A stretch of 64,000 nucleotides of DNA from a virus: positions 11,927-75,926 of IMG/VR virus record IMGVR_UViG_3300050498_000110; one strand, written 5' to 3'. The translations under genes and the position numbers were made by a program. Positions 14,721 through 64,000 of this stretch are shown piece after piece; position 1 is the first letter of the stretch; each line of letters opens with the position of its first letter. Under the pieces are notes generated by a model, which saw only the letters and a program-made list of their open reading frames with translations, did no database searches and had not been told where the DNA came from.

Positions 14721-14800
14721 AGGCACGGCTTGGCTAGGCGAGGCAAGGCAAGGCGGGGCCGGACTTGGCGCGGCGGGGCTCGGCAAGGCAGGCAAGGCAA
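14721..14800 (+). repeat. NGGCN pentamer array 1 (about 14-16 units)
   Basis: aggca cggct tggct aggcg aggca aggca aggcg gggcc ggact tggcg cggcg gggct cggca aggca..., ends at the AAGGAG RBS. Confidence 0.9.
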
Positions 14801-22573: not shown

Positions 22574-22597
22574 ATTAGCCTCCATTGGTTTATGACG

Positions 22598-22657
22598 CGG
22601 CTCGGCCAGGCAAGGCGCGGCAGGGTGAGGCAAGGCCAGGCGCGGCATGGCACGGTA
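22598..22657 (+). repeat. NGGCN pentamer array 2 (12 units) with adjacent hairpin at 22664-22697
   Basis: cggct cggcc aggca aggcg cggca gggtg aggca aggcc aggcg cggca tggca cggta; GCGGGGCGGGATT/AATCCCGTCCCGC stem. Confidence 0.9.
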
Positions 22658-24938: not shown

Positions 24939-27401
24939 CTAGCTCCCGTTGGGGACTTCATAACCTACGACATAAAGATCCAGGTCGTTAGCACTGAACG
25001 ATCCACTATAGACCGTATAGGCATGCCAAACCGACTGCGCCCGGTTTGGCAGCATGCATTGAATCGCTTGCACTGGATTTTCACCAGCGAACGCCGCAGA
25101 TAGCGGGTATTCATACATGGCCGCGCTGTCTCCGACTCCGAGATACCACCAGATCGCACCAGCGCCGCCAGACGCGACACAAGAAACATTGCCCGATACC
25201 GTGACTGTCAATGCAATGGCGGGAACATAGGCGGCAGTTGAAACGGATCCCCATACGCCATTGCCAGCATTCAAAGTTGCTCCGATATTTTTCTGACCAG
25301 CATAAAAGCACCTGTTGCCACGAATGTGAACATATTCGAGGTTTCCGCTCGTGCGCTTAACCGTCGTCAGATAGGCCCAGTGCGTATAGCCGGAGGGCAA
25401 GGTCGGTCCCGCATTCGGTCCGGCGTTCGAGCAGATGCCCGCGAGCGTCGACGTCGTCGGGTTGTAGATCGCGTAGAGGTGCACGTCGCCATTCGACAGT
25501 GCCGCGTCAGGACCATTGGCACCGGCGGCGGCGCCTTGCGTCACCGTCAAGCTGCCGTTGGTGACGAGCAGGCTGCCAGCGCCAGTCTGGTGCAGCACGG
25601 CCTCGATGAACGTGACGGTGAATTGCGTCGCGCTAGTCAAGCCAGAAAGCCCGCGCACAGCGTAGACATCGCGCACCGCAGACTTGACGTGCGCCGTCGT
25701 CGCGATCGCCGTGCTGTTGTCATTGGCCGCTGGTGTCGGCGCCGCCGTTGTTCCGACGAGCGCAGCGTTGGTGATCTCGACCGGCGATGCGGTGTTGCTC
25801 TTGACCTGCGATTTGTTCTGGCCGCCGCTCAACATCAAAACGGTGTTGGCGGGATTGGTGTCGAAGATCGACACCTGCATGCGGGTGAAATCACCAGTGT
25901 AGAAACTACTCGCCGCCGATGCTTTCGCGCTGAATGCAAGCCCGATGTTGGCGTCAGCGCCGGAAGCCTGGATTAAAACTTGCCCGGCACCGGCAGTTTG
26001 CGGCTGGATGTTGAGCCCCAAAGTTCCGCTCGCACCGAACGTCGTAACGCCGCTCAAGCGCGTATTGTTGAGTAGCGTATTGAGATCGACGCCCTCGATG
26101 GCAGTCGCCGAGATCCAGCGCGCGACTTGCGCGTTGAGCGGCGTGCCCGATGACGATACGTTGCCGCCGGACGTCAACGACATCAGCGTGCCGCCGGAAA
26201 ATTGCAGGCCGGTGCCAATACTGACTTGCGACCACACCCCGCTGCCGGAACGATAATAGATGGTGTTGGTTCCGGAGAGCGCAGCGAGCGCAGCAAGATC
26301 GCTGTCGGCTTGCTGTGCGTCGAGCGTCGCCCGCATGGTCGCCGCGTCGGCATCATCCAGCAGCGTGCGCGCAAACACCGACAGCGGCGTCAATGCTGCC
26401 GCGCCTGGTCCGGTGAAATACGGCGTCTGGTCGGCTGCGCCGGTCAAGCTCGCAAGCGCGGCCAGCTCGGCATCATAAGGCTGCGCGCCACCGGTGCCGA
26501 CTCTGACGTCGAGCGTCCCGGCCGAATATGTCAGGTTGGCGCCGAGCGTGAGCGCGGACCAGGTATCGGCGCCCGAGCGATGATAAATGCCGGCGGCACC
26601 AACGCCGGTCGCCGCTGCCAGCGAGGTTAAGTCCGGGTCAGTCGTTTGTTTGCCTGCCAGCGCATTGGTGACAAACGCCGTAGTCGCGATGGTCGTGTTC
26701 GAAGTCGCCGGGCTCTGTGTCGGCGCGGTCGGATTGTTGAGGAAATTCGGACTATCGAGCGCCGCCAGGCCGGCGGCCTGGTAGCTCTGCCAGGATGTGC
26801 CGTAGCGCAGGTAATAGTTCCCATCCGTCGGCGCGTCAGCAACGATCCCTTGCGGCCCGGTCGGTCCTTGCGGGCCAGGGATGCCTTGGACGCCCTGCGG
26901 CCCTTGGATGCCCTGCGGGCCGGTCCCGCCAGCGGTGCCGGTGTCACCTTTCACGCCCTGCGGTCCGATCGGCCCAGCCGGGCCGGGCGGCCCTTCCGGC
27001 CCCACCGGTCCCTCCGGTCCGCCAGGCGTTCCGGGCGGCCCCGCCGGACCGACCGGCCCCTGAATTCCCGGCTCGCCGGCCACCGACACGTTCCAGCTCG
27101 GATAAGTGCCGCTGCCCTTGGTGGCATCCGGCGCGACAACGACGGTTTCGCCGTCGTAACTCACCACCACGCCCTCGAGCCAGACATTGGAATAGCCTTG
27201 CGCGGTCGCGCGTACGCGCTGGCCGGGCAGGAACGAAAGCCCGTATTCGTTGAGCACGAAGCTCTTGTTGTCGAGATCGACGGTCTGCCCGCTGTCGCTT
27301 GTGCCCGCGGCACGCGGCCCGATAGCACCGTAAGGCGCGGCGATTGCGACCGCCGTGGGCTCGACAGTGCGCTCGACAACCGTAAGACCGATGATGGTCA
27401 T
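24939..27401 (-). CDS. Tail fibre protein with collagen-like segment
   Basis: G-X-Y run, LDSPNF...APT...IATTAFV fibre repeats, variable C-terminus. Confidence 0.88.
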
Positions 27402-50839: not shown

Positions 50840-51039
50840 GACTGCAACAACTCGACCAGCTTGGCGTTGCGGCGGCGCTCGCGTGCCAGCAACAGCATCA
50901 GCGCATGGCGGGCGCGGGCAGGGTCGCGCTCGAGCGCCAGGCGCGCGGGCGGACGGGCGGCTGCGGACAGCTCGGCCGCGCCGTGCTTAAGCTCGGCCAC
51001 GCGTGCGCTGGCCAGCAGCGATTGCTTGAGCCGGTTCAT
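50836..51039 (-). CDS. Hypothetical protein
   Basis: ATGA-coupled at both ends. Confidence 0.5.
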
Positions 51040-52277
51040 TTGGTTTCCGTGTGGAATTGCTCGAACAGCTCGCGCAGCGGTAATGCCACTTCATCGCCGT
51101 CGGACATGACAGCAATTGCACGATAACTGGCGCGGTCGATTCGCCATTTGACGATGCGGGCGCCGGGCGGGCCTTGCTCGCCCTTCACGCCGCGCTCGCC
51201 AGGGCGGCCAGGCTCACCATCGCGGCCAGGCTTGCCCGCGCGGCCGACGCCGCAGAGAAGTTGCCAGCCCTCACCAGGACAAGGGCCGGGCGCGTCCTTC
51301 AACGCAACGAAGCTCGAACCGTTGACCATGACTAAGTCGAGCCGGGCATATTCGGCTTCGGCCTGGTGCAGCCCGCGCGGGTTGATGGCAGCACCGTCGC
51401 GACCGCCGACCGCCAAGCAGATCCAATCGGCGCTATGGCCGGGCCTGGTCGCGGTATCCTTGAGCGCCTGGTAGCAGGCGCCATCGCAGGCGAAGACGTC
51501 GCCTTCATAGGCGACCGTATCCGGCCGCCACAGCTTGCCCTTCGGCAGCTTGCCGCGTGGACCTTCCGCGCCGCGCTCACCGGCGACCCCGCGCTCGCCT
51601 TGCGGTCCGGACGGTCCCGGTGGTCCGGGTGGGCCGTCAACGCCAGGCTGGCCGGGCGGCCCTTGCTCACCGATGGCCCCGCGTTCGCCCTGCGGACCGG
51701 GCGGGCCGTTAGCACCGGGCTGACCGGATGGGCCTTGCTCGCCTATCGGCCCCGTTGCCCCTGCCGCGCCGGGCGCACCGGGCTCGCCGTCTTTGCCAGG
51801 CTGACCGGCTTCGCCAGGCTCGCCCTTTTCGCCGCGCTCGCCTTGATCGCCCTTATCGCCGATAGCGCCAGGCGGCCCCGCGGCGCCTGCTGGCCCTTGC
51901 TCGCCTTGCAGTCCTTGCTCGCCGACATCGCCTTTCTCTCCCTTGCTGCCGGGCTCGCCATTGATGCCAGGCGGCCCTGGTAGGCCGGGCGGCCCGCGCT
52001 CGCCGATTTCGCCAGGTTCGCCGGTGTCGCCTTTCTCACCGCGCTCGCCTGGCGCGCCGTCGCGCACGCGCGCCAGACAGTCATCCACGACACGCCGCAC
52101 TTCCTCGCGTAGCTCGGCGTTTTGCGCGCGCAGCTCGGCAATGGTGGCGCGCGCCTGCGCCTCGATTGTCTCGCGCTCGCGTGCCCATTGGCGGCGCTGC
52201 TCGGCAATGACCTGGCCGAGTGCGGCGCGAAGTTCGTCAAGCTCGCCGTCGAGCTGCAAAGCGTAAGCGTGATTCAT
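51036..52277 (-). CDS. Collagen-like head-associated protein
   Basis: Coiled-coil N-terminus, long uninterrupted G-X-Y run, then YEGD...Y.ALKDT and [19 protein letters not shown] modules. Confidence 0.85.
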
Positions 52278-54856
52278 TCTTCCTCGCTTTCGCCTTCATC
52301 GGATTCCCCGGCCTCGATGCGAGCCTTGACGGCATCAGAAATCTTTTTGGCCGCGGCGTCATCGCCGTCGTCGAGAATGTCCTGATGCAGCTCGGCGTCT
52401 TGGTAGTTGCCGTCGTCGTCGATGTAAAAGAATTCTTTCGACTTGGGATTTTTCGTTCCGGTCTTCGGCGGCAGGTCGTCGGCGCGCACGACGCGGAAAT
52501 GTTTTGCCGCAGATTTCTTTTTGCCGACATAGGCATCGAAGCGCGCCATCGATTCCTTGTCGCCGAAAACCAGCTTGCCCTCCCATGACGAGCCCAGCAA
52601 CATTTGCTTGCCAAATGCGCTATCGGCAATGGCCCATATTGCCTTCGGGTCGTTGCTCTTGAGCGCGCCGCCGATTTGAGATTGCACCATCGCCAGCACT
52701 TCGGGAGTTGATTTTCCCAGCCTGCGATTGATCGACTCGCGGATCTTGCTCCAAGCGCCTTTGGTTGGAACGTAGCCATATTTGGCCCAGGCATAGCCGC
52801 CGACGTCGAGATTGGCTTTTGTCTCAAGATGCTTGATGCCAAGGTCGCGGTAGGTCTGCACATTTCCTGCAAGCAACTTTTTGCCGACGCCCTTGGATTG
52901 CGCTTCCTTGCTGACTTCGAACAGATCCGAAGTTGCAACGTTGCGTTTGACATCTATCGAGCGCTGAAATTCGCCGACGGTTTTGCCGCCTTCCTTGAGC
53001 TTGCCGCTAATCTCTATAAGATGCTCGCGGGTCTGTTTGCCGCCCGGCTTGCTGGTGCCGACATTGAAGCTGCGCAGCGACACCGTCATGTCGCCTTGTG
53101 CATCGCCGAGAAATGATTTTTTGAAATCACCGGGATCCATTCCGACGCTATCGTTCCAGACTTCAAGAAACTCCTTTTCGTCCACAGTCGAAACTTTGAC
53201 GCCCTCTTGCTTGAACTTGCTGGTGCTTTCGACCTTGACCTTTTCCTTGCCGCCGCCCTTGCCGCCGCCGCTTGTCTCATCGCCACCGCTGCCCGGTTCA
53301 CTGCCGCACAATAAGCCCGTCTCGGGATCCTGGCAGAAGTCGCGCAGCACAATGCGCCGGTCATATTCATCCGCCAGTGCGAGCAAGCTGCGGCGCTCAC
53401 GCACGATGTTGGCCTTTTTCGGCGGCGGCTTGTCTTCGTCGTCGGACTCGAGCTTGGCGGGTTGCGGTTTGCCGGGCGGTGGCGCACCAGGTGCAGGCGC
53501 GGGCGGCGGATGCGGACCGGTCGAGAACGGCGACGGGCTGGTGGGGATGCCTGCCGCGGCAGACAGCGGCACGACCTGCTGTTGGACGCGCGGCTCATCG
53601 CCATGCGCGACTTTGGGATAGCTCTCGAGGTTGCGTGCTTCGTTAGGCGCCAGGATGCCGCCCTGCACGGCACGCGCCAGGCTTTCGATGCGATCCTTGA
53701 ACAGCGAGCGCAGCAACGCCGCGGTGTCCAGCTCAAGGTATTCGTCTGGCACGCCTTTGAGCTGGAACAGCACGCCAAAGGCTTCTTCGATATGCGAAAG
53801 ACAGAACCCGAGCCCGCTGCTGACCCATGCCTGGTAAAGCGCTTCCACCGATGAAAACGCGGTGCCGCGGCCGCTCTTGTCGGACACGCCGAGCACCGCC
53901 AGCGGAATGCGAAACGCGAGCGCGATCTGTTCGTCGCTCATCTGTTTCATTTCCGCGACTTGCGAATCTTTGCCCGGCGTCGACCACGGTTGCACTTTCA
54001 AGCCAGCGGTCAGAATCGGCGTGCCGCCTGGTCCGCAGCCGTCGAGCCCGGCGGCTTGCTCGCGCCAGCGCTGGCGCAGCTCATCGACTTGCTGGCGGTT
54101 GAGCACCAGATCGGTCGACAGGATGGCCGAAGGCCGCGCCTGGTTGAGATAGAACGCCGTCTGCTGTGCATTGATTGCCGAGCTGGTAGCAATCTCGGAC
54201 AGCGCAGCGGTCAGCGGCGTCTCGCCGACCAGCGGGAATGGTTGCCGGCGGCGGATGCAATGCAGGCGCACGTGCAGCACGTCGCGCATTGGCACCACCA
54301 GGCGCGCGTCCGGCGCCAGGCGCTTTTCAATCACATCGTTGCCGGCCAAGTGATAAAAAATCTCGCCGTTATAGGCGAGCTGCGGCTTGCACTGGAATGG
54401 ATCGAACATATGCAACGATTCAATCTCGAAGCGATTGTTGCGCAGCGCCAACGCATAGGCGTTGCCCTCGAGATAGACCGAGCGCGTCAGATTCAACATG
54501 AAATCTGAAATGCTCTGATAGTCATTCGGATGGCGCAGGATGCGCGATAGCGCCGAATTGGTCACGCGCTCGCGGCCGCCGTTGGCTTTGCTGCGCCAAT
54601 GGTCGCCTGGCAGCATGGCCACGGTCTGCGCGTAGGCCGATACGCATGCTTCCACCATGGCGGATTGGCTTGAGCCGCCATAGGGATCCATCCCGGTTTG
54701 CCACCAGTTGATGGGCGCCCCGTCAGGAAGCCAGCCGCCGGTGACGGGCAGATAGTACGGCCCCGACCGCGGCTCGCCTTCGACCGCGCGCAACACCGCA
54801 TTGGCATAGACATTTTGCGCCGCCGAGATGACGACGGGCGCAAGCGCCGTATCCAT
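52274..54856 (-). CDS. HK97-family portal protein with a C-terminal GNAT-like extension
   Basis: [31 protein letters not shown]; extension [10 protein letters not shown]...[15 protein letters not shown]. Confidence 0.92.
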
Positions 54857-55331: not shown

Positions 55332-57683
55332 TTACCAGTTGACGTTGTTGACCCATGCGACGCAACCGCTGCGCCGCATTAACCAGTTGAGCGGCATGAT
55401 CATTCGCAATGCGATGCTGTCAGTCTGAAACAGCGAACGCTGCGGTGACGCCACGGTTCCGGGCGAGCCGGTGCCGACCAGCTCAAGTGGAGTCGTGTCC
55501 TCCATATGAAGCGTAGCAGAATCGCTAAGCTCGAAGCGCGGCCCGCCACCGCCGGCCGTAACGAAGTCCGCCGCGTCGACCAGGATGACGGTCCGGGTCG
55601 GGATCGTTGCCGAGTCGATGATCGGGATGTTGAGCAACGTGCCCTGACCGATTTCCGCCTTGAACGGGAAGATCCCGTTGGTGTTGGCCAGCGACGCCGA
55701 CAGCATCTCGCCGGGATTCATCAGGAACACCGGGTTGCGGATGTTGCCCTTGGTGCTGGTGGTCAGCACGCCGACCAGCAGCTTGAGATCGCCGATGATC
55801 GCGGGCAGACCTGGCCCGGTCGTTGGCGTCTGCGCCGCCACACCGTTGAGCAAGCCCGCGGGCCGCGTGGTGGTCGCCGGGTTGGCGTCGATGAGCACCG
55901 AGTCGATGGACACCGACGTGTCGGTCTGGATGGCTTCGCGCAACACGCCTTCGATGGCGGGTGTGCTGTGCTCGCTCATTTCGCGAGTCCACACGGTGAT
56001 GACGGCGAGTTTTTTCGGCGTAAGATTCTGACTCGTGAACGCGCCGATGCGGACCGGGATGGCGGCGCCTTCTCCGACGAAGGATCCGGCAATGGTCGGC
56101 GTCACCGAACGAGTCGGAATCACGATTTTCGCGGCACGTCCGAATTGCAACGTCAGGCCCCTGGCCGCAAACCGGGTATAGACGGCTTGCGGGATGAGCT
56201 GCGGCATCAGCTCGGCATAGGTTTGCTGTGCCAGTTCTTGCGCCCAACCCGGTACTGTGGTCATGGCGGGCGCAGTGGCCGTGCGCAGGATAAGACCGCA
56301 AGCGACCCTGGTGACTTCGTCGTCGCCGTAGATCTTTTCGCACGCCTTGATCGGATCAATTTGCCAGTCTTTCGCGAATATCGCGACCGTGCCCGCGCGC
56401 ACCAGATATTCCAGCGGTGCCAGCTCTTTCTTGCGCTTGGGGATGACGTGCGGCGCACTGATATCGTGGTCGTTGCCATCTTCCGGGCGGCGCTGGTCGT
56501 GCAGCACCGTCAACGCCCGGCTCGAGCTGCCATTGCCGTTGCCGTCAGTCGACTTCGCCAGCAGCTTTTCCGATTGCAGCCAGGCATCGAGCCGCTTGCG
56601 CATCTTGGCGATGTCGGCATTGAGCGCGGTCGTCGTTTCGATTTCGTCATCTTGGACGTCATCGTTGTCCATCTTCGCCAGAAGCGCCGTCAGCGCGTCT
56701 TCCTTTGCCACCAGATCGGTTTGCAAAGCGGCGATCCGTTCTGAAAGCGTGCTCATGATTTTTGAGCCCTTTCTATTGCGAGAAGTTGCGGCATGCTCGC
56801 CGGTGGCACCGTTGCGCCGGATGGTCCCGTTTCCTTTGCGTTGCTCCGCGAAAACGAGTCCGAGCGTGTCGGTGGAAACTTTCAGAGACTTGGCCAACGC
56901 CAATGCATTGGCGTTGGCAGGTACCGCAACCAGCGAGCATTCGACCAGCTCTTGCTCGAGGAAGCGGAATGGCCCGAAGAATGGATCCGACTTTTCAGTC
57001 AGCGGTTCGCGCTTGGTGGCGCGGAAGCCGACCGACACCGCGCGCAGGATGTCAGCGTCAACCAGGCGGCGGATTTCGTCGATGCGCGGTGACGTGCCTT
57101 CCGGCGCCAGCTCGAGGCGGCCACGAAGCTGCACGCCGTTGACCTTGACGTCATGCCAGCGACCTACAATGAAGGTCGGGTCGTGCGCAAAAAGTGCTAC
57201 GGGGTTGCGCTTGAACGAATCTGTTTTCCAGCCATCGGCGGAAATGATGTCGCCCATCCGGTCTTCGGATTCATCCGATAAGACGAAGTGCCAGCCGGTG
57301 CCAGCCTTGCGCGCTTTTTCGGCATGCGTGGCGCGGTGCACGTGATCGGCGCCGCTACTGCGCTCCGACCACAGCATGGCGCAGGCTTCCTCATCGTCGA
57401 TGGCATCGACGCAATCGCTGATGAATTCTTCGCGGTCGTCATAGTCTTCGGGATCCGGTGCTTCGGCTTTTGTCGTCAGCAACCTTTTCCAGAGCGCGAT
57501 GATGCGTTTGACTTCGGCGGCCGGTGGCGCCGCTAAGTTTTTGCTGTCGCGCCAGTAGCCCATGCAGATCGCAACAGCCTGTTCCTGCGTGCGATCTTCC
57601 GGCGCGTCGTCGCCGAATGTCTCGCTCATGCAGCGGGCCATGAAGTCCGACTGGCTTTCGCCAGGCTTGGGTTTCATCGGCAT
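55332..57683 (-). CDS. Prohead protease-major capsid fusion (HK97 type)
   Basis: DRMGDII...NPVALFAHD...VSVGF...ECSLVAVPAN protease motifs; FVGEG..IP...PKKL...TRE...RPAGLLNG capsid motifs. Confidence 0.95.
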   Translation of the reverse strand: MPMKPKPGESQSDFMARCMSETFGDDAPEDRTQEQAVAICMGYWRDSKNLAAPPAAEVKRIIALWKRLLTTKAEAPDPEDYDDREEFISDCVDAIDDEEACAMLWSERSSGADHVHRATHAEKARKAGTGWHFVLSDESEDRMGDIISADGWKTDSFKRNPVALFAHDPTFIVGRWHDVKVNGVQLRGRLELAPEGTSPRIDEIRRLVDADILRAVSVGFRATKREPLTEKSDPFFGPFRFLEQELVECSLVAVPANANALALAKSLKVSTDTLGLVFAEQRKGNGTIRRNGATGEHAATSRNRKGSKIMSTLSERIAALQTDLVAKEDALTALLAKMDNDDVQDDEIETTTALNADIAKMRKRLDAWLQSEKLLAKSTDGNGNGSSSRALTVLHDQRRPEDGNDHDISAPHVIPKRKKELAPLEYLVRAGTVAIFAKDWQIDPIKACEKIYGDDEVTRVACGLILRTATAPAMTTVPGWAQELAQQTYAELMPQLIPQAVYTRFAARGLTLQFGRAAKIVIPTRSVTPTIAGSFVGEGAAIPVRIGAFTSQNLTPKKLAVITVWTREMSEHSTPAIEGVLREAIQTDTSVSIDSVLIDANPATTTRPAGLLNGVAAQTPTTGPGLPAIIGDLKLLVGVLTTSTKGNIRNPVFLMNPGEMLSASLANTNGIFPFKAEIGQGTLLNIPIIDSATIPTRTVILVDAADFVTAGGGGPRFELSDSATLHMEDTTPLELVGTGSPGTVASPQRSLFQTDSIALRMIMPLNWLMRRSGCVAWVNNVNW

Positions 57684-57695
57684 GGGGAATGCTCC

Positions 57696-58271
57696 CTAGA
57701 ATTGCGCGAACGCCAGCCAGGTTCCGGCAACGTGCGTGATCGGCCAGCCCGCGGCGCGCAATTGCTCGAGCGCGCCGGTCACTTCGACACCAGGGTTGCC
57801 GTAGTCGTGCCAGACGATGACGCCGCCCGGCTTGATCAGCTTGCCCGCGGTGTCGCTGTCGTGCATGACCGCGTCATAGGAATGGTCACCGTCGATAAAT
57901 ACGGCATCACAGGGCTCGAGCTGGTCGGCGACGTCGAGTGAGCCTTGCGGCCGCAGCACCAGGCGAAAGCGCGGGTCATGCGTTGCCCAGCGGCCGGGCT
58001 TGTGTTGCACTTCCGATTGCTGGCAGCGCAGCGTCGTCACAAAGTCGCTCGGCACGTCGACGCCGTAATAGCGCTCAATCGTCGGCACGTGCTCGAGTAC
58101 GCGTCGCGCGGTCAGACCGGATGCAATACCAATTTCGACCATGACCCGCGGCCGCACGCGCCGCAGCAACGCGACCAGCACGGCACATTCATTGGCGTTG
58201 AGATAGGCGCTAAACGGTCCGCGCAGCGCCGTCGGGCCGAACGACGCTCTCGCGACTTGCGGTAAGGCCAT
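57696..58271 (-). CDS. Class I SAM-dependent methyltransferase (Methyltransf_24-like)
   Basis: VEIGIASG, VFIDGDHSYDAV..D, PGGVIVWHDY. Confidence 0.9.
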   Translation of the reverse strand: MALPQVARASFGPTALRGPFSAYLNANECAVLVALLRRVRPRVMVEIGIASGLTARRVLEHVPTIERYYGVDVPSDFVTTLRCQQSEVQHKPGRWATHDPRFRLVLRPQGSLDVADQLEPCDAVFIDGDHSYDAVMHDSDTAGKLIKPGGVIVWHDYGNPGVEVTGALEQLRAAGWPITHVAGTWLAFAQF

Positions 58272-59466
58272 GCAGTGCGCTCGTCCAATCGCCCGGCGCC
58301 GCCTGGCGGCAGATCTTCATGCTCGGATACCACGGGGCCAGCCAGCGCCAGCTCGCCCAATGCGACAGCAGTAACGTTACCGGCCGCTCGAGCGCACCCG
58401 CCAGATGCGCGGCGGCGGTGTCGACCGTCACAATCTCATCGAGCGCCAGCATCAGCGACGCGCAGTCGGTGAAATCCTCGAATTCATGCGTGCGCACGCC
58501 GAGCGCTTGCGCCTCTTCGCGGCCCTGCGTCTGCACCGAATGCAGCTCGACATCTGGTAGCGCCGCCACCAGCTCAGCCAGCGGGATCGCGCGCGGATAA
58601 TCATCCTTGAACATTTGCCCGACCGACCAGGCGATGCCGACGCGGCGCTTGCCATTGAGCGACCAGGCGACGCTACGGCGCGGCGCTGACAGCTTGAAAT
58701 TGGGCAGCACGTCGCCCGGCGTGGCGACGCCGCAAAGATACGGCAACAGCAGGAATGGGCAGAAGTAATCGGCCGACGGGTCGTCAAGCACCGGCCCGAC
58801 TTGCGCCGCCAGCCGCTCAAGCGCGGGCGCGGTTGCCAGCCCCATCACCACGTCGAGCCCTTGCGCGCGCAGCCAGGCGACATAGCGCAGCGCCATGATG
58901 CTGTCGCCGAAGCCGTGCGCATGCAGCGCCAGCAGGCGCTTACCTGCCAACGGTTCACCGTGCCAGGGCCGCATTCCGGCCGCGAGCGCGGCCTTGCATT
59001 GCGGGCGCTGGAACGGCGGCATAGCCTCGCAATCAAAATATTCGCTAAAACCTTCGTGCCACCGTCCGACCGCCAGCAACATGAAAGCTCGGTTGAAGCG
59101 CGCGTGCACGGTCGGCGCGATGACAATGGCAGCATCAGCCTCCAACAGCGCTTCATGGTTCTGATTGCTGCGGAACAATGCAGCGGCGCGATTGAAGTGC
59201 ATCAGGTAGCGGTCGATGCTGACGCCGGGCCGTTGCTCAATCGCGCGATAGCCGACGGCTTCGCCGCTGCGCATGACCAGCAGCGGTTCGTTCGGCGGCT
59301 CGGGCTTGTGGCCATTGCGGCCGTGCACTTCGAGCAGCTCGCCGTGCTCGGTCAGCCCGCGCCAGCCGGTTTCGGTTACCTCACACGCGACGACAGGATC
59401 CAGGTCCGGCAAATCGCCGAATCCAGAAAAAATCGTTTTGCCCTTGTTTGTTTCCATGCAGATCAA
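58210..59466 (-). CDS. TPR-containing glycosyltransferase (GT9-like, GT-B fold)
   Basis: TPR-like HARFNRAFMLLAVG; GFGDSIM; VGIAWS; IVTVDTAAAHLAGAL; WRW...WYPSM...RQ..PGDW; start uncertain (59457 or 59466). Confidence 0.88.
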   Translation of the reverse strand: MICMETNKGKTIFSGFGDLPDLDPVVACEVTETGWRGLTEHGELLEVHGRNGHKPEPPNEPLLVMRSGEAVGYRAIEQRPGVSIDRYLMHFNRAAALFRSNQNHEALLEADAAIVIAPTVHARFNRAFMLLAVGRWHEGFSEYFDCEAMPPFQRPQCKAALAAGMRPWHGEPLAGKRLLALHAHGFGDSIMALRYVAWLRAQGLDVVMGLATAPALERLAAQVGPVLDDPSADYFCPFLLLPYLCGVATPGDVLPNFKLSAPRRSVAWSLNGKRRVGIAWSVGQMFKDDYPRAIPLAELVAALPDVELHSVQTQGREEAQALGVRTHEFEDFTDCASLMLALDEIVTVDTAAAHLAGALERPVTLLLSHWASWRWLAPWYPSMKICRQAAPGDWTSALHGLTASRESVVRPDGAARTV

Positions 59467-59485
59467 GCGCTACTTTATTGAAGTT

Positions 59486-59555
59486 AGGCAAGGCCCGGCG
59501 AGGCTAGGCATGGCGTGGCTCGGCCCGGCGGGGTTTGGCCTGGCATGGCAAGGCA
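59486..59555 (+). repeat. NGGCN pentamer array 3 (14 units) with adjacent hairpin at 59560-59591
   Basis: aggca aggcc cggcg aggct aggca tggcg tggct cggcc cggcg gggtt tggcc tggca tggca aggca; GGAAGGCCAG/CTGGCCTTCC stem. Confidence 0.9.
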
Positions 59556-59596
59556 AGGAGGAAGGCCAGGAGTTCGCGCTTCTGGCCTTCCGATTG

Positions 59597-60655
59597 TCAT
59601 TTCCAAACAGGAGTCATCCAAGCGAAAGCACGCGGGTCGCGCAAGGCCCAGGTCACGGGCCAGCGCATTTTAAGGCTCATAGTATCCGTTTGAAACATCG
59701 AGCGTTGCGGCCCCATGGTCCCGGCGGGACCGGGCACGGTATCCATCACTAAGCTCGCGGCCTTCGATGTCTCAATTTCCGGCTGCGGCGAGAACGCTGC
59801 CACCAGCGCCGCGGGCGCAATCGCCAGCACGTCGTTGATGACCGCGCTCGAGCCCAGCACAATGACGTTGGTTCCGCTCGGCGCGCCGCTGGTGCGGGCA
59901 TTGAACAACATCGCCCGGCCCGGCGACATGACCAGGATAAACGGCCCGTTGCCGCCGACCGGCGCGAGTTCATTGAACAGCACGCCCATGTCTTCGTAGA
60001 ACGCATAGGTCGGATCGGCATTGTTCGACGCCGTCGATGCCGCGATGCCATAGCGCAGGCCCGCCGGGCGAGCGGCGTCGCCGGGATTGGCGTCGAATAG
60101 CACTTCGTCGAGCATCCGGCCGGCGGCGTGCGTCAGGGTATCTTCCACCAGCGCTTCGGCGTTGCTGCTTTCGATCATCTCCCGCGTCAGCACCGCGATG
60201 GCAGCGAGCTTGTGCGGCTCGAGAAGGGCAGGCGATGCCGCGAGCTGGCGCACCGGGATCGGAGCACCTTCGGCGACGAAGCCAGCATTGCCGAACTCGG
60301 CCACAAAGCCGGGCGCACTGATTGAGCCGAAGCCGTCGAAGTTGAGCACCAGGCTGTTGCGGAAGATCTCGGCGGCCGCCGACGCCGGACCAAGCGCCTT
60401 GAGATTGTCCGCCACCATGCGCTGCGCCAGCTCGGCGGCCCAGCCCGCCACCGATGTCATGGCCGGCGCCACCGCCGCGCGTATCACCCGGTCGCTCGGA
60501 TAACGCTCGGCCACCACGTCCTCAATCCGGCGCCCTCGCACTTGCGCAATGATTTGTGCCGTCACCAGGCGCACGAAGCTGTTGCCGCCCGGTAGCGATG
60601 GCTCGGGCTGGAATGACGGCTTCACCGGCTGCGGCGGCGTCATGAGCATGTTCAT
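59597..60655 (-). CDS. Second HK97-fold major-capsid-like protein (no protease domain)
   Basis: WAAELAQ, FVAEGAPIPVR, PHKLAAIAVLTREM, DANP...RPAGL, RSMFQTD...RWPVTW. Confidence 0.9.
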   Translation of the reverse strand: MNMLMTPPQPVKPSFQPEPSLPGGNSFVRLVTAQIIAQVRGRRIEDVVAERYPSDRVIRAAVAPAMTSVAGWAAELAQRMVADNLKALGPASAAAEIFRNSLVLNFDGFGSISAPGFVAEFGNAGFVAEGAPIPVRQLAASPALLEPHKLAAIAVLTREMIESSNAEALVEDTLTHAAGRMLDEVLFDANPGDAARPAGLRYGIAASTASNNADPTYAFYEDMGVLFNELAPVGGNGPFILVMSPGRAMLFNARTSGAPSGTNVIVLGSSAVINDVLAIAPAALVAAFSPQPEIETSKAASLVMDTVPGPAGTMGPQRSMFQTDTMSLKMRWPVTWALRDPRAFAWMTPVWK

Positions 60656-61918: not shown

Positions 61919-63514
61919 TCAGCCAATCAACGCGCTAATGTCCACCACCGCCATGCCGCGATCGCGCGCGCGCAACCCCATCATCATCGCCAGCGCCACA
62001 GCGCCGTCAATGCGAAACCTGGCTTTCTCTTTGTCCAGCTTCCGATTACCCGCCGGATCCGTGGTCGCAATCGCGTTGCTCATATTCCAGATCAAGACCG
62101 GATTGGAATCGTGCACCACCTGGTGCTCGAAGATCGCGTGCTCGAGCGCATCAATGGCTGGCGACATATCGCGGTAGCCTTGCCCCCAAGGCACCACACG
62201 CAAGCCATCGCCACCGCGTGGCAGCTTGCCAAACTCCTGCGGCTCGGTGCTGTCGCGAAATGATTGCAAGCCAATGCGGTCGAACTCACGCATCAGATTG
62301 TCAATGCGCCAGGCATCGTAAGCCAGCCCACGCACGCGATAAGTCACCGTCAGCTCGGCAATGAAGTTCGCTACGACGGCCTGGTCAATGCTGCGGCCGG
62401 GCGACGTCATCAGCCAACCGGCATCGCGCCATTGCACATAACGCTGATTGCCCGAACCAAAATCCTTGTTCGATTGCTCAACCAATAATTCGTCCGGTTT
62501 CCAGAAGAACGACTTCACCTTGCACGGATCCGTCACCGAGCCCATCACCACCGCGGTCAAGTCAATGACGCTCGACAAGTCGACACCTAGATAAACTTCC
62601 TCTTGCGGCTCGAATTCCACCTGGCCCGCACAGCTCGACCACTCTGCACGCGAGATCAATGTAGATGCCGGATCAACCCGCTGATTCAAAAAGAGGTTTC
62701 TAACTTTCGGTTCCTCCGCAGGCATGCGGACGGCCTTGCGGATCCCGGAAATGAAATCTTCCTTGTCGCGAAATGACCCGAGCGCCGGATTGGCCCGCAA
62801 CCATTCCGCCTCATCCGTCAGCTCGCAATCTTCCTTGGCCGCATGCAAGTGACAGACAATGGTCGGATCAATTCCCGCTAGACCATCGTCAATCAATTTC
62901 GACAGCACGTGCTCGGGGTCGTTGCTCTGTGTGCTCATCACGATGAACAGCGGTTCCTCGCGCGCACCGAAACTTGTATCGAGCACATCGTACAAATCCC
63001 GATTCTTGGCTTGTGCCAGCTCGTCGTACACGACCAAGCTGGGGGCGAATCCATGCTTGGTGCCCGCCTCCGCGCTCACCGCCCGGTAAACCGAGCCGGT
63101 GTCGCGCGCCACCATGGTCTTGGTCGACGGCACCACATCAATCAACTCGCGCAGCTCGGGCTCGAGCCCAATCAATTGCTGGGCGAACTTGAACACGATT
63201 GCGGCCTGGTCGCGGTCGTTGGCCGCGCTGTAGATCTCGCCGTAAGTTTCCTTCTCCGGGCCAACCAGATGCGCCAATGCGATCGCCGCAATCAAGGCCG
63301 TCTTGCCGTTTTTTCTCGCCATACTGAGGATTGCACGACGCACCGCGCGCTTGCCGTTCGGCAGCGTCGGCTCGTAAATGTCTTTGATGAATGCCTTCTG
63401 CCAGCGTTGCAGCTTGAAGCGCTTGCCCTTGCCAACGCCGGACGGGATCGTCAGCAACTCGATGAAATCAATTACTCGCTTTGCGCGCCTCTTGCCCGCG
63501 GCGCTGCGCGTCAC
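61919..63514 (-). CDS. terL: Terminase large subunit
   Basis: SMARKNGKT Walker A, VVYDELAQ Walker B, LGVDLS and RIDGAVAL nuclease motifs; probable GTG start at 63514 (track start 63652). Confidence 0.97.
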   Translation of the reverse strand: MTRSAAGKRRAKRVIDFIELLTIPSGVGKGKRFKLQRWQKAFIKDIYEPTLPNGKRAVRRAILSMARKNGKTALIAAIALAHLVGPEKETYGEIYSAANDRDQAAIVFKFAQQLIGLEPELRELIDVVPSTKTMVARDTGSVYRAVSAEAGTKHGFAPSLVVYDELAQAKNRDLYDVLDTSFGAREEPLFIVMSTQSNDPEHVLSKLIDDGLAGIDPTIVCHLHAAKEDCELTDEAEWLRANPALGSFRDKEDFISGIRKAVRMPAEEPKVRNLFLNQRVDPASTLISRAEWSSCAGQVEFEPQEEVYLGVDLSSVIDLTAVVMGSVTDPCKVKSFFWKPDELLVEQSNKDFGSGNQRYVQWRDAGWLMTSPGRSIDQAVVANFIAELTVTYRVRGLAYDAWRIDNLMREFDRIGLQSFRDSTEPQEFGKLPRGGDGLRVVPWGQGYRDMSPAIDALEHAIFEHQVVHDSNPVLIWNMSNAIATTDPAGNRKLDKEKARFRIDGAVALAMMMGLRARDRGMAVVDISALIG

Positions 63515-64000
63515 CTGACTGTTCAACCAGGTCGCCGAACTTAGATTTTTGTCCAACAGCGATTGGGTTGATGCGGGCTCGAGCCGCGGGGGTAAATCCG
63601 AATTCAATGGCATGACGTAACACCTGCCTTGACGCTTCGCGCTCTTGCGCAATCAACGGATTTGCAAGTACGCGCGTCCCACCACCGTGCGTCTTGCCTT
63701 CCTCAATGACCAGCTCCCCATCGGCAACTGCTTTCTTCAATGCCTCAACTAACTCTCTCCGCACCTCAACCGCATGGCAATACCCCGCCAACGGCTCGAA
63801 ATCGACCCGGCTCAATATCCTCATCTCAATCAACAATTCAGCAACGCGATACCACTCCGCTTGACCTACCTCGCCAAGCCAATCAGGCGCGTTCGGCAAG
63901 TCCGTCACCCGCGGCGCTTCCACCTCGGGCGGGATGATTTGCTTGCCAGGGTTGCCGCGCAGCATCTTGATGCGCGCAGGAATTGGGGTCGGTGCCGCCA
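63468..64000 (-). CDS. terS: Terminase small subunit (P27 family); start lies at or just beyond the window end
   Basis: PARIKMLRGNPGK, APDWL, NPL, EFGFTPAARARI. Confidence 0.92.
   Translation of the reverse strand, partial: AAPTPIPARIKMLRGNPGKQIIPPEVEAPRVTDLPNAPDWLGEVGQAEWYRVAELLIEMRILSRVDFEPLAGYCHAVEVRRELVEALKKAVADGELVIEEGKTHGGGTRVLANPLIAQEREASRQVLRHAIEFGFTPAARARINPIAVGQKSKFGDLVEQSGDAQRRGQEARKASN

Follow-up and report, generated by a model that had tools for sequence, protein, structure and literature searches.

The window analyzed here is a stretch of 64,000 nucleotides from an uncultured virus. It is part of a 76,054-bp IMG/VR record (IMGVR_UViG_3300050498_000110), which originated from rhizosphere metagenomes and is rated complete by CheckV. 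Toward its right end, the window encodes a cassette in which a second capsid gene, here named cap2, is followed by a gene for a glycosyltransferase (GT) resembling FlmG of Caulobacter, a methyltransferase (MTase) gene, and a fusion of prohead protease, scaffold, and major capsid protein (MCP). The location of a second capsid gene and an FlmG-like GT among head genes hints that these phages may coat their heads with sugar. From ~24 kb rightward, every gene of the window is on the minus strand. The order of transcription was TerS, TerL, a few small open reading frames (ORFs), cap2, a 130-nt spacer, the GT, the MTase, which overlaps the GT by 62 nt, and the fusion, after which a small ORF, the portal, a collagen-like protein, and a head-tail adaptor were found (Table 1). 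An earlier reading of the letters of this region (the original prediction) had listed five elements, namely a capsid-like gene, a hairpin with a pentamer array, the GT, the overlapping MTase, and the protease-capsid fusion, and all five were recovered on the minus strand where it had placed them. The region was found in sequencing runs from rhizosphere and soil DNA metagenomes only, with no RNA holder listed, and none of 50,697 phage records matched the 5.3-kb region at the DNA level.

Table 1. Features of the head module in the window. Positions are those of the window. MTase, methyltransferase; pLDDT, predicted local distance difference test; SAM, S-adenosylmethionine; TPR, tetratricopeptide repeat.
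Feature	Position	Strand	Basis
cap2, 352-aa HK97-fold capsid paralogue without protease or scaffold/delta domain	59597..60655	-	PHROG 617 'major head protein', E 4e-20
Spacer with hairpin and ~14 in-phase GCCNN pentamers	59467..59596	-	Sequence
FlmG-like TPR/GT-B glycosyltransferase (GT), 415 aa from ATG; ORF opens at TTG 59466	58210..59457	-	AlphaFold model, pLDDT 90
Class I SAM MTase, Methyltransf_24, TylF-like, 191 aa	57696..58271	-	Pfam PF13578, E 7e-16
Prohead protease-scaffold-major capsid protein (MCP) fusion, 783 aa	55332..57683	-	Peptidase_S78 and Phage_capsid; PHROG 617, E 6e-77, residues 133-783
TerL, upstream boundary of the conserved slot	61919..63652	-	PHROG 9, E 5e-116; Pfam TerL_ATPase and TerL_nuclease
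Portal, 860 aa, downstream boundary of the head module	52274..54856	-	Pfam Phage_portal, E 9e-64, residues 68-411

The second capsid gene

The product of cap2 aligned to residues 465–781 of the fusion protein with 36% identity over 320 columns (E 6e-37), and every capsid motif that the original prediction had described as shared was present in this alignment. No Pfam family, including Phage_capsid, matched cap2 at E ≤ 0.1, and the protein scored below the curated TIGR01554 model (19 bits vs. a cut-off of 27.5). Its HK97 fold was recognized from the AlphaFold model (pLDDT 80), for which Foldseek gave 278 matches in the PDB (E ≤ 1e-3), with phage capsids and encapsulins at the top. The capsids of R4C, D3, and HK97 as well as encapsulins matched at E 1e-8 to 2e-10, and several mycobacteriophage capsids were also found. 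The N-terminus of cap2 comprises only 56 aa, the alignment is limited to the capsid part of the fusion, and no scaffold gene was found between TerL and cap2 in the window.

A maximum-likelihood tree placed the cap2 proteins in one clade (support 99/93) and the MCP domains of the family in another (93/74), with both split from the MCPs of cultured isolates by a long branch (100/100). The two capsid genes of the original prediction are thus borne out as true paralogues, and since the tree sets both clades apart from the isolates' MCPs, cap2 is a long-standing duplicate of the capsid domain, formed inside this lineage. The sub-clades of cap2 and MCP were broadly congruent, and cap2 evolved approximately twice as fast as the MCP (mean distances 0.68 vs. 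0.34). The gene is maintained, with its own family-wide clade and an HK97 fold. An encapsulin-like shell carrying the GT as cargo was considered and set aside, although encapsulins are among the fold matches, because cap2 is far closer to its own MCP (36% identity, sister clades) and is located in the head operon.

Some relatives encode two scaffold-less paralogues side by side, one of type A and one of a second, more divergent type (B). These were observed in L021:1079-3179, in L046:2293-4933 (also L091), and in L129:2875-4956, which, together with the main capsid fusion, amounts to three HK97 paralogues in one head operon.

These properties bear on whether cap2 is a structural protein at all. 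It could be a non-structural capsid look-alike, serving as an adaptor that shows capsid surfaces to the GT, as an assembly regulator, or as a decoy for capsid-sensing host systems. Such a role would be consistent with the lack of a scaffold/delta domain and protease, with the twofold evolutionary rate relative to the MCP, and with the presence of two cap2 types plus the MCP in L021, L046, and L129, a pattern that suggests an accessory family sooner than a requirement of shell geometry. Against this, the HK97 fold is retained family-wide in all its elements, as are the capsid motifs that cap2 has in common with the MCP, and the gene is the first of the head operon after the terminase. We know of no precedent for a capsid look-alike decoy, and we consider a non-structural role improbable.

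Conservation of the cassette

The protein collection contained more than 270 homologues of the GT, of which the 120 best listed had 47–76% identity to it. Scans of viral contigs detected at least 184 GT-bearing stretches and at least 306 with a related fusion, of which the best 80 of each were returned; the fusion scan was run with an alignment, as a single-sequence fusion query gave one locus only. The ORFs of 146 loci were classified by BLAST against the window proteins, and loci containing both TerL and the fusion were treated as complete intervals (n = 45, non-redundant). Both cap2 and the GT were present in all 45, mostly adjacent, with a spacing of 1–4 nt or an overlap. The MTase was found in 26 (~58%) and is facultative. 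It mostly follows the GT, precedes cap2 in four loci, and separates cap2 from the GT in one. The co-occurrence that the original prediction had proposed to check therefore held for cap2 and the GT and only partly for the MTase. The conserved order was TerL, cap2, GT (with the MTase where present), protease-scaffold-MCP fusion, and portal. Four further loci were uninformative, as each was cut by a contig end: L117 had only an MTase within 4.6 kb upstream, and L094, L137, and L138 lacked a GT between cap2 and the fusion.

The same gene order was found in a prophage (L001) of Bradyrhizobium sp. CCGUVB1N3 (GCA_024199925.1). The cassette is the core of a conserved head module in an uncultured family of tailed phages of ~70–95 kb from rhizosphere and soil and in related Bradyrhizobium prophages. 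The 9.9-Mb chromosome of CCGUVB1N3, a cultured strain, encodes two different GT copies (P0018 and P0019), so this strain probably carries two prophages of the family. A full cap2-GT-fusion module with 40–48% identity was also observed in L147:6970-13373, a contig binned as a Chloroflexia metagenome-assembled genome (MAG). The match to its GT is split into two overlapping pieces, possibly because of a frameshift. Given its distance from the Bradyrhizobium-type hosts seen otherwise, this contig may have been binned wrongly, or the range of hosts may be wide.

Cultured phages with related capsids, which include Stx phages such as BP-4795, Burkholderia phage vB_SBP9, and Ralstonia phages, contained one capsid match per record; the single record with two capsid matches was a combination of two phage sequences. 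No GT was found in these cultured relatives, and in BP-4795 and vB_SBP9 the protease/MCP directly follows TerL. Thus, cap2 and the GT are present together in the complete intervals and absent together from the cultured relatives, which, along with their adjacency, favors a functional pairing. Contigs of the family measured 67–96 kb, compared to ~44–58 kb for cultured relatives without cap2 (single-phage records), which hints at a tie between cap2 and capsid geometry. No record with an FlmG-like GT in the head operon or with the cap2 family was found in the cultured-phage collection as of August 2025, and no description of either was found in the literature.

The stretch between cap2 and the GT sets the window phage apart from its relatives. 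A hairpin with a 10-bp stem starts just 3' of the cap2 stop codon and was present in both the minimum free energy and the centroid structures; it is followed by ~14 in-phase GCCNN units at 59487-59559. A pattern of five GCCNN units matched 31 times in the window vs. 0.13 matches expected by chance. Three arrays of 12–14 in-phase pentamers were observed on the minus strand (14722-14789, 22594-22656, and 59487-59559), and arrays of at least nine units occurred in at least 120 other viral contigs, where some may be coding repeats. The array was absent from the 225 other loci fetched, and in relatives the cap2 stop is 1–4 nt from the GT start or overlaps it, with no spacer. Consequently, the hairpin and array are a private insertion of this phage that lies outside the conserved system, and they drop out of the set of elements that the original prediction had joined together. 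In this phage, they may lower the expression of the GT and MTase.

Because this spacer resembles an insertion scar, we also considered the cassette as a recent moron or a decaying duplicate without conserved function. This is highly improbable, as all 45 related loci contain the cassette with intact frames and 47–76% protein identity, the groupings of cap2 and MCP are broadly congruent, and only this phage has the scar-like spacer. The conservation data already contradict such a reading.

In relatives, the slot that separates the GT from the fusion is a hot spot for insertions. Directly after the GT, L031:6978-9546 encodes a Methyltransf_23 gene, a Maf/MptE-like gene (PF01973) with a weak match to the flagellin modification protein PseD, and an SGNH/GDSL esterase, which together look like a larger island for flagellin-style glycan tailoring. 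The slot genes of L014:6629-12756 and L046:7101-9977 include domains of an ADP-ribosyltransferase exoenzyme (PF03496), an ATLF-like metalloprotease, and a pyridine-nucleotide-disulphide oxidoreductase. Judged from these domains, they resemble MuF-type polymorphic effectors associated with the head.

The glycosyltransferase, the methyltransferase, and the donor sugar

Sequence profiles matched the GT weakly. The Pfam Glyco_transf_9 model gave 21.3 bits vs. a cut-off of 22 bits and covered only profile positions 174–226 of 247, and the TPR_2 match was weak. A few GT homologues carry a precomputed PF01075 match. The AlphaFold model (pLDDT 90), built from 26 homologues, consists of an N-terminal beta domain (residues ~21–76), TPR-like helices (84–162), and a GT-B part (177–404). 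Its PDB matches were the heptosyltransferases WaaF (1psw, E 1e-6) and WaaC, XcOGT (a bacterial OGT), SPY, and TibC. The top Swiss-Prot model was FlbA of Caulobacter (596 aa; E 8e-16, template modelling (TM) score 0.61, 22% identity), which we take to be FlmG because of the same 596-residue length and the flbA references cited in PMC7591256. The match spans residues 85–404 of the phage GT and 225–589 of FlmG. In FlmG, the TPR part binds flagellins and the GT-B part transfers pseudaminic acid to them (PMC7591256). Six residues were invariant in the 26 homologues, namely G185, G187, and D188 (GD in the N-domain) and D349, T350, and H354 (DTxxxH in the C-domain), and these likely suit an active enzyme of GT9/GT-B type.

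Cellular homologues of the GT are widespread, with 29–36% identity over residues ~60–410. No capsid genes were nearby in 79 of 80 loci of cellular homologues, and a flagellin gene was located within 8 kb in at least 10 of them, including loci of Geomonas, Citrifermentans, Geobacter, and a Bradyrhizobium MAG. Based on the FlmG-like fold and the flagellin context of cellular homologues, the phage GT belongs with the flagellin-type protein O-glycosyltransferases, and the protein-glycosylating type proposed in the original prediction gains support on both counts. The gene context of the phage GT is the head operon and not flagellar. The long flagellin-binding TPR region of FlmG is gone from the phage GT and a phage-specific N-terminal domain has been gained, for which no look-alike above a TM score of 0.5 was found in the ESM Atlas. 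The original prediction had named late modification of host lipopolysaccharide (LPS) as its alternative. This seems less likely, because the modeled build of the GT is soluble, TPR-guided, and FlmG-like.

The MTase matched Methyltransf_24 (PF13578) at 59.4 bits, against a cut-off of 26.3. The label of its PHROG family (2675) is 'DNA methyltransferase', and no match was found among the sequences of solved structures. NCBIfam models gave nothing for the GT, the MTase, or the fusion homologue. The GT homologue P0105 is a natural GT-MTase fusion with precomputed TylF (PF05711) and Methyltransf_24 matches, and it ties the two activities together; the functional link between GT and MTase in the original prediction is thereby strengthened, from one relative. 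This fusion is also the one indirect sign that a sugar hydroxyl may accept the methyl group.

We also searched for the enzymes that would supply a sugar. The phage encodes no NeuB-type nonulosonate synthase, no Maf-like domain, and no GT2 enzyme, and no sugar-synthesis gene was found among the large early-region ORFs scanned. The genome of Bradyrhizobium sp. CCGUVB1N3, with its two such prophages, also lacked NeuB. Pseudaminic or legionaminic acid was therefore downgraded as a candidate donor. Since neither NeuB nor sugar-synthesis genes were found, the donor is probably an ordinary host nucleotide sugar and not pseudaminic acid. The modification is probably a single sugar residue, because the phage has one GT and no second.

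Putative head glycosylation and comparison with known systems

Taken together, we propose that the cassette is a flagellin-type O-glycosylation system whose target is now a head protein and that cap2 is a minor subunit of the shell, both roles being putative. We give this reading about an even chance. Late in infection, the GT would take a host nucleotide sugar and, by analogy with FlmG and flagellin, O-glycosylate a self-assembling head protein while this is still in the cytoplasm, either ahead of procapsid assembly or in the course of it. Either or both of cap2 and the MCP could be the acceptor. Substrate selection, which in FlmG falls to the flagellin-binding region, would here be taken over by the phage-specific N-terminal beta domain together with the short TPR part, and the MTase, where present, would O-methylate the sugar. 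Without a scaffold or protease part, cap2 cannot scaffold itself; it would instead be built into the shell along with the fusion protein and make up a minor share of it, perhaps the vertices, as do T4 gp24 and SaPIbov5 Ccm. As a shell subunit, cap2 would carry or help display the glycan. A more specific version holds that the scaffold-less duplicate is a dedicated glycan-bearing shell subunit and that the FlmG-like GT was captured from host flagellar glycosylation, acquiring a new substrate-binding domain, with the sugar optionally methylated. This version we regard as rather unlikely.

Several observations weigh against the proposed head glycosylation. In a distance-matrix (mirror-tree) test controlled for the portal and the protease-scaffold part, no cap2-specific co-variation of the GT was detected (partial r 0.03, permutation p 0.37), and GT distances co-varied slightly more with the MCP (0.21) than with cap2 (0.03). 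Synteny within one phage family can reflect common descent and not a functional link, and a few relatives have 1–2.7 kb between cap2 and the GT or have them downstream of the portal (L010). The GT falls 0.7 bits short of the Pfam GT9 cut-off, and the donor of FlmG cannot simply be transferred, as NeuB is absent from the phage and from CCGUVB1N3. The fast evolution of cap2 fits a minor subunit but equally a non-structural role. A structure prediction of the GT-cap2 complex gave a median score of 0.31 vs. a mark of 0.32, with controls at 0.00, and was not used as evidence in either direction.

Some of these observations also fit the main rival reading, in which cap2 and the enzyme genes are neighbors and not partners. 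Here, cap2 would be a minor or vertex subunit or a determinant of capsid size, and the GT and MTase would modify another virion protein (one of the two collagen-like proteins at 51036-52277 and 24939-27401, or tail fibres) or would act on host LPS or flagellin against superinfection. In addition to the lack of cap2-specific co-evolution of the GT, the slot from TerL to the fusion is a general insertion hot spot that also houses unrelated effector-like genes, the GT-B part is like that of the LPS heptosyltransferases WaaC/WaaF, and cellular homologues appear to serve flagellin. The size of the family contigs (67–96 kb vs. ~44–58 kb in cultured relatives) suits a role of cap2 in capsid geometry, and HK97 paralogues that occupy pentamers are known, such as SaPIbov5 Ccm (PMC8569155). 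On the other hand, cap2 and the GT gene touch or overlap in most loci, neither occurred without the other in the 45 complete intervals, and both are missing from cultured relatives. The GT is also without the long flagellin-binding TPR region, carries a phage-specific N-terminal domain unlike any other fold, and is located in the late head operon and not in a lysogenic-conversion position. Overall, an arrangement of unconnected neighbors seems somewhat unlikely.

The closest known counterpart of the phage GT in structure is FlmG (FlbA) of Caulobacter crescentus, with a soluble TPR part followed by a GT-B part. FlmG acts on a self-assembling structural protein, flagellin, in the cytoplasm prior to assembly (PMC7591256), for which a head protein is the proposed counterpart in the phage. 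The two enzymes differ in length (596 aa vs. 415 aa in the phage) and in their TPR parts, which comprise 313 residues in FlmG and approximately two TPR-like repeats in the phage GT. Moreover, the phage GT has a phage-specific N-terminal beta domain, its gene lies in a head operon beside a capsid paralogue, and pseudaminic acid is an unlikely donor, given that NeuB was found neither in the phage nor in the one lysogen searched. The GT9 heptosyltransferases WaaC and WaaF and the protein heptosyltransferase TibC resemble the phage GT in the GT-B part (E 1e-6 to 1e-3), and the Pfam GT9 model covers the region of the DTxxxH nucleotide-sugar motif. In contrast to these enzymes, the phage GT is under the Pfam cut-off, aligns with a TM score of only 0.35–0.37, has extra TPR and N-terminal domains, and has no LPS-core or autotransporter context around it.

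Capsid paralogues that occupy special positions of the shell offer a model for cap2. In phage T4, gp24 is a capsid paralogue that occupies the pentamers at the vertices. Ccm of SaPIbov5, an HK97 paralogue 24% identical to its partner, is found in pentamers and shrinks the capsid of the helper phage (PMC8569155). Like these proteins, cap2 is an additional homologue of the main capsid protein (36% identity) with an HK97 fold, and it could co-assemble at special shell positions. It differs from Ccm, which comes from a pirate element, in that it is the phage's own, conserved in the family, and paired with a GT.

Phage-encoded GTs are known to glycosylate the capsids of cluster F1 mycobacteriophages, Che8 and its relatives (Freeman et al. 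2023, Cell Host Microbe 31:1216, as cited in PMC11256854). These are also HK97-fold tailed phages that encode their own GTs, and in the window phage glycosylation is a proposal drawn from the genes. The mycobacteriophages have actinobacterial hosts, several GTs that are located near the 3' end of the genome and not in the head operon, and no second capsid paralogue reported in that source (PMC11256854). The premise of the original prediction that actinophage virion GTs are encoded among structural genes is thus inaccurate for cluster F1.

To date, most demonstrations of phage virion glycosylation come from mycobacteriophages, whose particles it shields from antibodies. If the proposed retargeting to head proteins is true, virion glycosylation would extend to Gram-negative soil systems, namely abundant rhizosphere phages and Bradyrhizobium prophages. 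It would also represent a cellular protein-glycosylation enzyme retargeted by a swap of its substrate-binding domain, and a natural two-subunit HK97 shell outside of T4-like phages and pirate elements. Were cap2 a dedicated glycan-bearing subunit, this would be the first capsid glycosylation beyond actinophages and archaeal viruses and the first with an acceptor subunit of its own. The cassette is of interest mainly because it is conserved, abundant in soil, and mechanistically suggestive. A sequenced Bradyrhizobium strain with two copies makes the system directly testable, and, with the family absent from cultured-phage collections, the 'hypothetical protein' labels in almost all records can already be improved.

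Two further features of the neighboring genes were observed. The window encodes two collagen-repeat proteins, one at 51036-52277, directly after the portal and inside the head module, and one of 820 aa at 24939-27401, at the far end of the tail-gene region. The former is a possible head fibre and the latter is probably a tail fibre, and either could be an alternative target of glycosylation. The portal carries a C-terminal extension of ~340 aa (residues ~520–860; window positions 52274-53300) that is ~40% identical to separate genes of 500–900 aa between TerL and cap2 in relatives (L017:3527-5080, L028:4978-7662, L035:266-2881, and L040:7079-8716). The separate gene of these relatives appears to have been fused to the portal in the window phage.

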